NCBI RefSeq assembly: GCF_003334785.1
Contig: NZ_QOWV01000071.1
Source: Escherichia coli
GTDB taxonomy: Bacteria; Pseudomonadota; Gammaproteobacteria; Enterobacterales; Enterobacteriaceae
Direction: 5' to 3' (one strand)
Length of the DNA: 816 nt
Positions 1-816 of the stretch are shown here, one piece after another. A program made the position numbers and the translations under genes. The notes beneath the pieces were generated by a model. The model was not told where the DNA came from, did no database searches, and was given only the letters and a program-made list of their open reading frames with translations. The stretch's first letter is position 1. Every line of letters starts with the position of its first letter.

Positions 1-17
1 CTCCTTCTAAATTAGAC

Positions 18-21
18 GGAG
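18..21 (+). promoter_or_regulatory. Putative Shine-Dalgarno (GGAG) for tnpA
   Basis: GGAG at 18-21 lies 8 nt upstream of ATG at 30 and 5 nt upstream of the alternative TTG at 27. Confidence 0.45.
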
Positions 22-29
22 TTCTATTG

Positions 30-464
30 ATGGATAAACCTACAGACTGGCGCTCCGGAACCCGCCGGATATTTTCTAATGAATTTAAACTTCATATGGT
101 TGAACTGGCTTCGAAACCAAATGCCAATGTTGCACAACTGGCCCGGGAACATGGCGTTGATAACAACCTGATTTTTAAATGGCTACGCCTCTGGCAAAGA
201 GAAGGACGTATTTCTCGTAGAATGCCTCCAACTATTGTAGGCCCTACAGTATCACAATCTTTTCCGGCCTCTCCGACTCTGGTTCCAGTGGAACTTATCG
301 ACACCCCGCGCTGTGCTACAGATGCTCCTGCTCCGGGGGCATTATCAGTTGCTTGTGCAGCTTCCTGCCATGTGGAATTCCATTACGGTAAAATGATGCT
401 GGAAAATCCTTCACCAGAGCTGCTCACGGTGTTGATCCGTGAGCTGACCGGGAGGGGACGATGA
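30..464 (+). CDS. tnpA: IS66-family accessory protein OrfA/TnpA, a small helix-turn-helix protein
   Basis: ORF track gives 27..464 from a TTG; I prefer the ATG at 30 because of its spacing from GGAG at 18-21. A predicted HTH segment (NVAQLAREHGVDNNLIFKWLRLW, about nt 123-190) resembles transposase-type HTH domains. The gene sits immediately upstream of, and overlaps, the IS66 Orf2-like gene, and its size (~145 aa) fits IS66 orfA. The reading frame stays open back to base 3, so a start upstream of the window cannot be excluded. Confidence 0.8.
   Translation: MDKPTDWRSGTRRIFSNEFKLHMVELASKPNANVAQLAREHGVDNNLIFKWLRLWQREGRISRRMPPTIVGPTVSQSFPASPTLVPVELIDTPRCATDAPAPGALSVACAASCHVEFHYGKMMLENPSPELLTVLIRELTGRGR
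450..457 (+). promoter_or_regulatory. Shine-Dalgarno (GGGAGGGG) for tnpB, embedded in the 3' end of tnpA
   Basis: Purine-rich GGGAGGGG at 450-457 lies 3-5 nt upstream of the tnpB ATG at 461. The tnpA stop TGA (462-464) overlaps that ATG as ATGA, the classic arrangement for translational coupling. Confidence 0.6.
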
Positions 465-811
465 TTTCACTCCCATCAGGTACCCGTATCTGGCTCGTTG
501 CCGGCGTTACTGATATGCGTAAATCCTTCAATGGTCTGGGGGAGCAGATACAGCATGTGCTGGATGATAACCCCTTCTCCGGTCACCTGTTTATCTTCCG
601 TGGCCGACGGGGAGACACGATTAAAATCCTGTGGGCTGATGCTGATGGTCTGTGCCTGTTCACCAAACGCCTTGAGGAAGGTCAGTTTATCTGGCCTGCG
701 GTGCGTGACGGTAAGATATCCATTACCCGCTCGCAACTGGCAATGCTCCTCGATAAGCTGGACTGGCGTCAGCCAAAAACATCCCGCCTTAACGCACTGA
801 CAATGTTGTAA
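461..811 (+). CDS. tnpB: IS66-family accessory protein OrfB/TnpB (IS66 Orf2-like; unrelated to the IS200/IS605 RNA-guided TnpB)
   Basis: Complete 116-aa ORF with ATG at 461 and TAA at 809-811. Motifs characteristic of IS66 Orf2-like proteins are recognised from memory: N-terminal IWLVAGVTDMRKSFNGL, central GHLFIFRGRRGDTIKILWADADGLCLFTKRLEEGQF, and C-terminal SITRSQLAMLLDKLDW. A strong SD precedes it and it overlaps the upstream gene by 4 bp. Confidence 0.9.
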   Translation: MISLPSGTRIWLVAGVTDMRKSFNGLGEQIQHVLDDNPFSGHLFIFRGRRGDTIKILWADADGLCLFTKRLEEGQFIWPAVRDGKISITRSQLAMLLDKLDWRQPKTSRLNALTML

Positions 812-816
812 AAAAC

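Follow-up and report, generated by a model that had tools for sequence, protein, structure and literature searches.

The 816-nucleotide stretch analysed here (the window; Escherichia coli assembly GCF_003334785.1, contig NZ_QOWV01000071.1) is the front part of an insertion sequence (IS) of the IS66 family. In its entirety it almost certainly corresponds to element positions 57-872, the element being 2541 bp long and of the ISEc47 type. The window holds (i) the end of a leader, (ii) a complete tnpA, and (iii) a complete tnpB; the third gene, tnpC, is not included, and the left inverted repeat lies 56 bp beyond the window. The element is an already known and ordinary one, of which the window represents roughly the front third, with the first two genes. 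In window coordinates, the features are as follows.

1..26, plus strand: the 3′ 26 nucleotides of the tnpA leader palindrome, a 31-nucleotide imperfect palindrome at element positions 52-82 (L002:5996-6026, where L002 is the copy in plasmid pWP7-S17-ESBL-04_2)
30..464, plus strand: tnpA, 144 amino acids, an IS66-family accessory protein with a helix-turn-helix (HTH) at about residues 10-60, a variable linker, and a conserved C-terminal module
355..385, no strand: approximate mosaic junction inside tnpA, at element positions ~411-441
461..464, plus strand: the 4-nucleotide ATGA overlap between the tnpA stop and the tnpB start, read from the sequence, with GGGAGGGG upstream at 447-454
461..811, plus strand: tnpB, 116 amino acids, an IS66-family accessory protein identical to WP_000624688.1
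812..816, plus strand: the first part of the 30-nucleotide spacer before tnpC, whose ATG would be at window coordinate 842

Both open reading frames (27/30..464 and 461..811) lie on the same strand and are well beyond chance length. The tnpA frame opens at position 27 or 30, corresponding to 145 or 144 amino acids, and NCBI takes the ATG at 30. The other frames of 70-100 amino acids (479-736 minus, 498-797 plus, and 95-304 minus) match no NCBIfam family, and an Rfam scan of the window returned no RNA family at E ≤ 1.

Identity of the stretch and its proteins

The assignment to ISEc47 is carried by nucleotide identity and by the annotation of identical copies. In a megablast search of 5,426 complete E. 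coli genomes, the window is matched at 100% identity across 816/816 bases in many chromosomes and plasmids. At least 99% identity is reached in 323 records, and at least 80% of the window is covered at a place in 488 genomes. These places number between 1 and 43 per genome, with sites and copy number differing among strains. In the identical copies, the tnpA product is WP_001421699.1 ("transposase"), the tnpB product is WP_000624688.1 ([quoted passage not shown]), and the adjacent TnpC is WP_000080164.1, which bears the PGAP label "IS66-like element ISEc47 family transposase". The ISEc47 label is found on tnpC beside all of the 100%-identical copies whose neighbouring tnpC was inspected (8/8), and ISEc47 is in use as an IS name (PMC12137328).

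TnpB provides the clearest link to the family. Residues 9-106 match Pfam PF05717 (TnpB_IS66, "IS66 Orf2 like protein") over nearly the full model with an E value of 3.5e-36, and the protein scores 119.1 bits against NCBIfam NF033819 (IS66_TnpB), for which the cut-off is 50. The initial annotation, made from the letters alone, had read the window as the tnpA-tnpB part of an IS66-type operon and had staked this reading on an IS66 Orf2-like domain in the 461..811 product; the domain is present, and together with the identical annotated IS66 copies it bears the reading out. IS66 TnpB shares only its name with the RNA-guided TnpB of IS200/IS605. Its own family is large, with 12,961 clusters at 50% identity (E ≤ 1e-3). 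A sequence search of the PDB with TnpB gave nothing below E 0.1. In the AlphaFold2 model, a beta-meander has one helix packed against it, and there is a second helix. SH2 domains were the top Foldseek matches to this model, none of them at E ≤ 0.001. A PUA-like (YTH/ASCH) resemblance is a weak lead, and because two structure-comparison methods disagree, no fold is assigned.

TnpA carries an N-terminal HTH, recognized by Pfam PF01527 (HTH_Tnp_1) at residues 11-60 with an E value of 2.7e-10. Its identity is 62% with ISEc23 TnpA and 67% with ISKox1 TnpA, and two further IS66 TnpA proteins could be aligned with it. In the alignment, its C-terminal module, SCxVEFxxGxMxLENPSPELLTVLIRELTG, is common to more distant IS66 TnpA proteins as well. 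A PDB sequence search with TnpA gave no match below E 0.1. The two genes are joined by the ATGA overlap, through which translation of tnpB is probably coupled to that of tnpA; the arrangement, with GGGAGGGG upstream, is compatible with such coupling.

The third gene begins beyond the window, 31 nucleotides past the last tnpB base in the identical annotated copies. Its product in these copies contains the DDE_Tnp_IS66 domain (PF03050, E 3.1e-97) together with zf-IS66, LZ_Tnp_IS66, and IS66_C, and scores 450.5 bits against NF033517, whose cut-off is 180. A tnpABC organization, TnpC as the transposase, and an 8-bp duplication are the hallmarks of the IS66 family (PMC6778807, citing Machida 1984, Han 2001, Gourbeyre 2010).

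Ends, target duplications, and genomic sites

In plasmid pWP7-S17-ESBL-04_2, the element occupies L002:5945-8485 (2541 bp) and interrupts a umuC-like gene. Five near-identical copies are complete from end to end; their length is 2541 bp, except in E. coli ATCC 25922 (L006), where tnpC is frameshifted and the element measures 2540 bp. The ends, read at the junctions, are the same in all five loci, with GTAAGCGTAAAGCC... on the left and ...GTTGACGCTTAC on the right (GTAAGCG...CGCTTAC). The left inverted repeat (IRL) lies 56 bp upstream of the window in the identical copies. Over the terminal 25 bp, all ends compared share the core GTAAGCGTnAA...CCGTnT.

Perfect 8-bp duplications flank the element at three of the five loci: CTTTCAAT in an ST540 chromosome (L001), CCCGATGG in L002, and TCGCACAA in strain AST240 (L008). 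The remaining two have no clean duplication; that of ATCC 25922 is imperfect, and the fifth copy, in L007, is nested in another IS66-family element. Extension in both directions, as the initial annotation had advised, recovers the inverted repeat, the full-length element, and the duplications in these copies. The word "fragment", used there for the window, holds for the window, which is a cut; it does not hold for the element, of which the five near-identical copies run end to end. Identical copies recur at numerous sites, on chromosomes as well as on plasmids and with their own duplications, which is indirect evidence that the element is mobile.

Two side observations concern these ends and flanks. 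At the right end of the element in L002 (8453-8484), a perfect 10-bp inverted repeat is formed by TAAGCGTCAA (8453-8462) and TTGACGCTTA (8475-8484), separated by a spacer of 12 nucleotides. The inner arm opens with the stop codon of tnpC, and the terminal TAAGCGT motif recurs in it; therefore, the end motif is present twice at the right end, in opposite orientations. In plasmid pNMBU-W12E19_01 (L007:3945-6485), the ISEc47 copy is nested among three other IS66-family elements, and its flanks lack matching 8 bp, which together suggest recombination between copies after insertion.

The sites of the copies examined point to accessory DNA. The copy in the ST540 chromosome is located downstream of the fec operon, beside IS3, IS30, and IS1 copies and a plasmid-type repB gene. 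Plasmids, F-type ones among them, carry others; in ATCC 25922 the copy is flanked by the virulence genes sat and iha, and in strain AST240 it lies in a prophage tail-fibre region. Matches in the plasmid collection come mainly from Escherichia and Klebsiella, with fewer in Salmonella, Shigella, Enterobacter, and Citrobacter. The earlier suggestion that the stretch marks accessory DNA is thereby borne out in the copies examined, and the practical value of the element is as a flag for probable accessory DNA around it. The element can also cause assembly breaks and rearrangements. In itself it is of little importance, being a common, named E. coli IS that is annotated automatically in hundreds of genomes.

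Several features of the surrounding DNA were observed in passing. Directly downstream of the element in the ST540 chromosome (L001:8482-12816), IS30, IS1, a decayed relE/parE toxin gene, a tyrosine recombinase, and a RepB-family replication initiator lie beside fecABCDE, and the region looks like an integrated plasmid remnant. ISEc23-like tnpA-tnpB, 92% identical to window 355-816, occurs in several lambda-like Escherichia phages (LR595861.1, NC_049946.1, and others) at around 21,200-21,900. The ISEc47 copy of L002 (flank 5729-5944) and an ISKox1 copy in L004 (flank 2651-2945) both lie in the 3′ part, the DUF4113 region, of plasmid umuC/impB-like genes. A shared insertion site was considered for the two and rejected; the flanks are homologous, and because the insertion points differ by about 78 nucleotides, the insertions are independent, neither orthologous nor site-specific. 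A regional target preference is possible. The ISKox1 copy of L004 resides in a Klebsiella-type virulence plasmid fusion, and its 59-bp right end is tandemly duplicated (5412-5529), with CGCTTAC termini at 5470 and 5529.

Leader palindrome, mosaic left module, and proposed mechanism

The initial annotation had also stated that nothing in the window is left unexplained. This is nearly so; the part that does not stand concerns bases 1-26, which belong to a conserved palindrome over the tnpA ribosome-binding site. The complete palindrome reads TAGAGCTCC-T-TCTA-AAT-TAGA-C-GGAGTTCTA, and its first 5 nucleotides lie upstream of the window. The Shine-Dalgarno motif GGAG (window 18-21) falls inside the palindrome, which ends 3 nucleotides before the ATG. 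As RNA, the complete leader folds into a stem of 13 pairs. Relative to shuffled sequences, the complete leader has a folding z-score of -3.1 in ISEc47, -2.3 in ISKox1, and -0.06 in ISEc23, while the leader piece contained in the window alone folds no better than shuffles (z -0.76).

Across seven diverged IS66-family left ends, 95.6% of the cells in the palindrome are paired, compared with 26-48% when the partners are slid. Several of the variants among these ends are G-U pairs. Since G-U pairs are tolerated in a sense-strand RNA and not in a DNA palindrome, the variants weakly favour an RNA hairpin, which may occlude the tnpA ribosome-binding site, over a protein operator. Short palindromes directly upstream of the tnpA start are present in two more distant IS66 elements of L007 as well. 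A scan of the whole element for promoters and terminators gave counts no higher than in shuffled sequences, with no promoter-like site in the leader.

Relative to ISEc23, the element is a mosaic. Megablast matches that begin at query position 355 or 385 number in the thousands. In a sliding comparison of ISEc47 (L002:5945-8485) with ISEc23 (L009:3100-5631), DNA identity is 35-70% from element position 1 to about 410 (window 1-354) and about 92% over window 355-816. From window position 355 to the right end, it is 85-100% per 60-nucleotide window and mostly 90-98%. The low-identity part takes in the left end and the leader and reaches about 110 codons into tnpA, and it is nearer to ISKox1 of Klebsiella plasmids (70-88%). 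Within TnpA, the junction falls between the variable linker and the conserved C-terminal module. The left end and the N-terminal module of TnpA vary independently of tnpB, tnpC, and the right end, and a TnpA that reads the left end would fit this pattern. The TnpA HTH probably co-varies with the subterminal left end and is hence presumed to bind there; the C-terminal module probably travels with tnpB and tnpC and is hence presumed to contact their products.

The best-supported account of the mechanism is the one usual for the IS66 family. A single transcript entering from the left end would encode TnpA, TnpB, and TnpC. TnpA would be a small HTH DNA-binding protein, while the 116-residue TnpB would be made via a coupled restart at the ATGA overlap. 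TnpC, encoded 30 nucleotides further on, is the DDE transposase, with zinc-finger and leucine-zipper regions. It would recognize the imperfect terminal inverted repeats (GTAAGCGTnAA...CCGT) and insert the element by an 8-bp staggered cut, leaving 8-bp direct repeats. The HTH of TnpA may bind subterminal left-end DNA, with the conserved C-terminal module contacting TnpB and/or TnpC, and TnpB may be a subunit that serves in assembly or regulation without being catalytic. Translation of tnpA may be damped by the palindrome at its ribosome-binding site.

The most specific version of this scheme is tentative. It holds that a left module was swapped onto an ISEc23-like backbone of tnpB, tnpC, and right end, that the HTH reads the left end, that the C-terminal 35 residues of TnpA dock onto TnpB/TnpC, and that the hairpin throttles tnpA; as a whole it is a possible account rather than a probable one. 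If it is true, the two IS66 accessory proteins would divide their labour in a way that is open to test. The mechanism of the IS66 family is described as insufficiently characterized (PMC12898284). A literature search found no specific recent mechanistic work on IS66 TnpA or TnpB. In a study by Han and colleagues from 2001, all three genes were reportedly required for transposition of IS679. The general issue touched upon here is the roles of TnpA and TnpB in the family, TnpB, with about 13,000 clusters at 50% identity, having no solved structure. The mosaic left module, the palindrome, and the TnpB fold are smaller points, of interest to IS specialists.

Alternative readings and comparison with named elements

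Seven points weigh against the assignment to ISEc47 and the scheme built on it: (i) the name is that given by NCBI (PGAP) to the adjacent TnpC, (ii) the window alone does not distinguish ISEc47 from the variant of ATCC 25922, with its ISEc43-labelled TnpC, (iii) TnpA falls under both NCBIfam cut-offs for IS66 TnpA, with 66.8 against 74 and 61.9 against 150 (E 2.3e-18 and 5.7e-17), (iv) the AlphaFold2 model of TnpB, computed from an alignment of 46 sequences, is of moderate confidence (pLDDT 70.4), (v) no convincing structural neighbour of TnpB emerged from the Foldseek comparison with the PDB, with none at E ≤ 0.001, (vi) covariation in the leader hairpin is not significant across the seven left ends, where a single compensatory pair does not convincingly exceed the shuffle control, and (vii) the roles of TnpA and TnpB are proposals only.

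The second of these points opens the way to a sibling or hybrid IS66-family element, such as the "ISEc43"-labelled variant, as the source of the window in place of ISEc47 proper. By the usual rule, isoforms of an IS share at least 95% DNA identity over their full length, and the window covers 816 of the 2541 bp. The copy of ATCC 25922 reaches 99.8% identity in the window, with about 2 differing positions, and shares the left 1.4 kb with ISEc47, yet its frameshifted TnpC is assigned to the ISEc43 family and its identity drops to 65-88% at element positions about 1700-2250, in the 3′ half of tnpC. Mosaicism is evidently common among these elements, which further speaks for a hybrid origin. However, tnpC is of the ISEc47 type beside all eight of the fully identical copies inspected, and the ISEc43-type copy is set apart by those two positions, so that a sibling origin of the window is unlikely.

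Assigning the window to ISEc47 leaves the question of whether this particular copy is a mobile unit or the scar of a truncated, dead remnant that lacks tnpC or the ends. Decay of this kind does occur among relatives: one, in L005, is 91.5% identical, stops within tnpB, and has a frameshifted tnpA, and a partial tnpA is found at an O157:H7 locus. The window itself contains neither end of the element. Decayed copies, however, usually carry substitutions or frameshifts, whereas both frames of the window are intact and its sequence is 100% identical to that of complete 2541-bp copies with target duplications. A remnant is accordingly quite improbable. The obscure biochemical role of TnpB_IS66 and the want of a convincingly similar solved structure are the sole support for recruitment of the tnpA-tnpB pair to a host or defence function, a notion that can practically be dismissed, since the pair lies inside inverted repeats beside an IS66 DDE transposase at every examined locus with an intact copy, and strains differ in the sites and in the copy number, with 1 to 43 places in a genome.

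As a member of the ISEc47 type, the element can be placed among named IS66 elements at increasing degrees of likeness. ISEc8, IS679, and IS66 share with ISEc47 the three-gene organization, the TnpB_IS66 domain, the DDE TnpC, and the 8-bp duplication (PMC6778807). They are nonetheless much more distant, with no megablast-level DNA match beyond the ISEc23-like part. The initial annotation had named ISEc8, ISEc22, and IS682 as examples of an expected top match; ISEc8, the one of these that was compared, does not fit that place, its TnpB being 64% identical to that of the window.

ISKox1 has the same layout as ISEc47 and is the closest element for the left module, with 70-88% identity in the leader and the 5′ half of tnpA. 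It also has the palindrome over the ribosome-binding site, as in ISEc47. At about 78% overall identity, it is a separate element.

Among the elements compared, none with another name comes closer over window 355-816 than ISEc23, whose TnpB is 94% identical. ISEc23 resembles ISEc47 in its tnpA-tnpB-tnpC layout, its right end, and its 8-bp duplication (GCTTGAGC in the ISEc23 copy). Unlike ISEc47, it carries a different left module, with a TnpA that is just 62% identical overall, and it is much more widespread. With ISEc47 as named by NCBI PGAP, no difference was detected: its tnpA-tnpB part is 100% identical to the window, it measures 2541 bp, has GTAAGCG ends, and is flanked by an 8-bp duplication, and the ISEc47-type name fits the stretch best.
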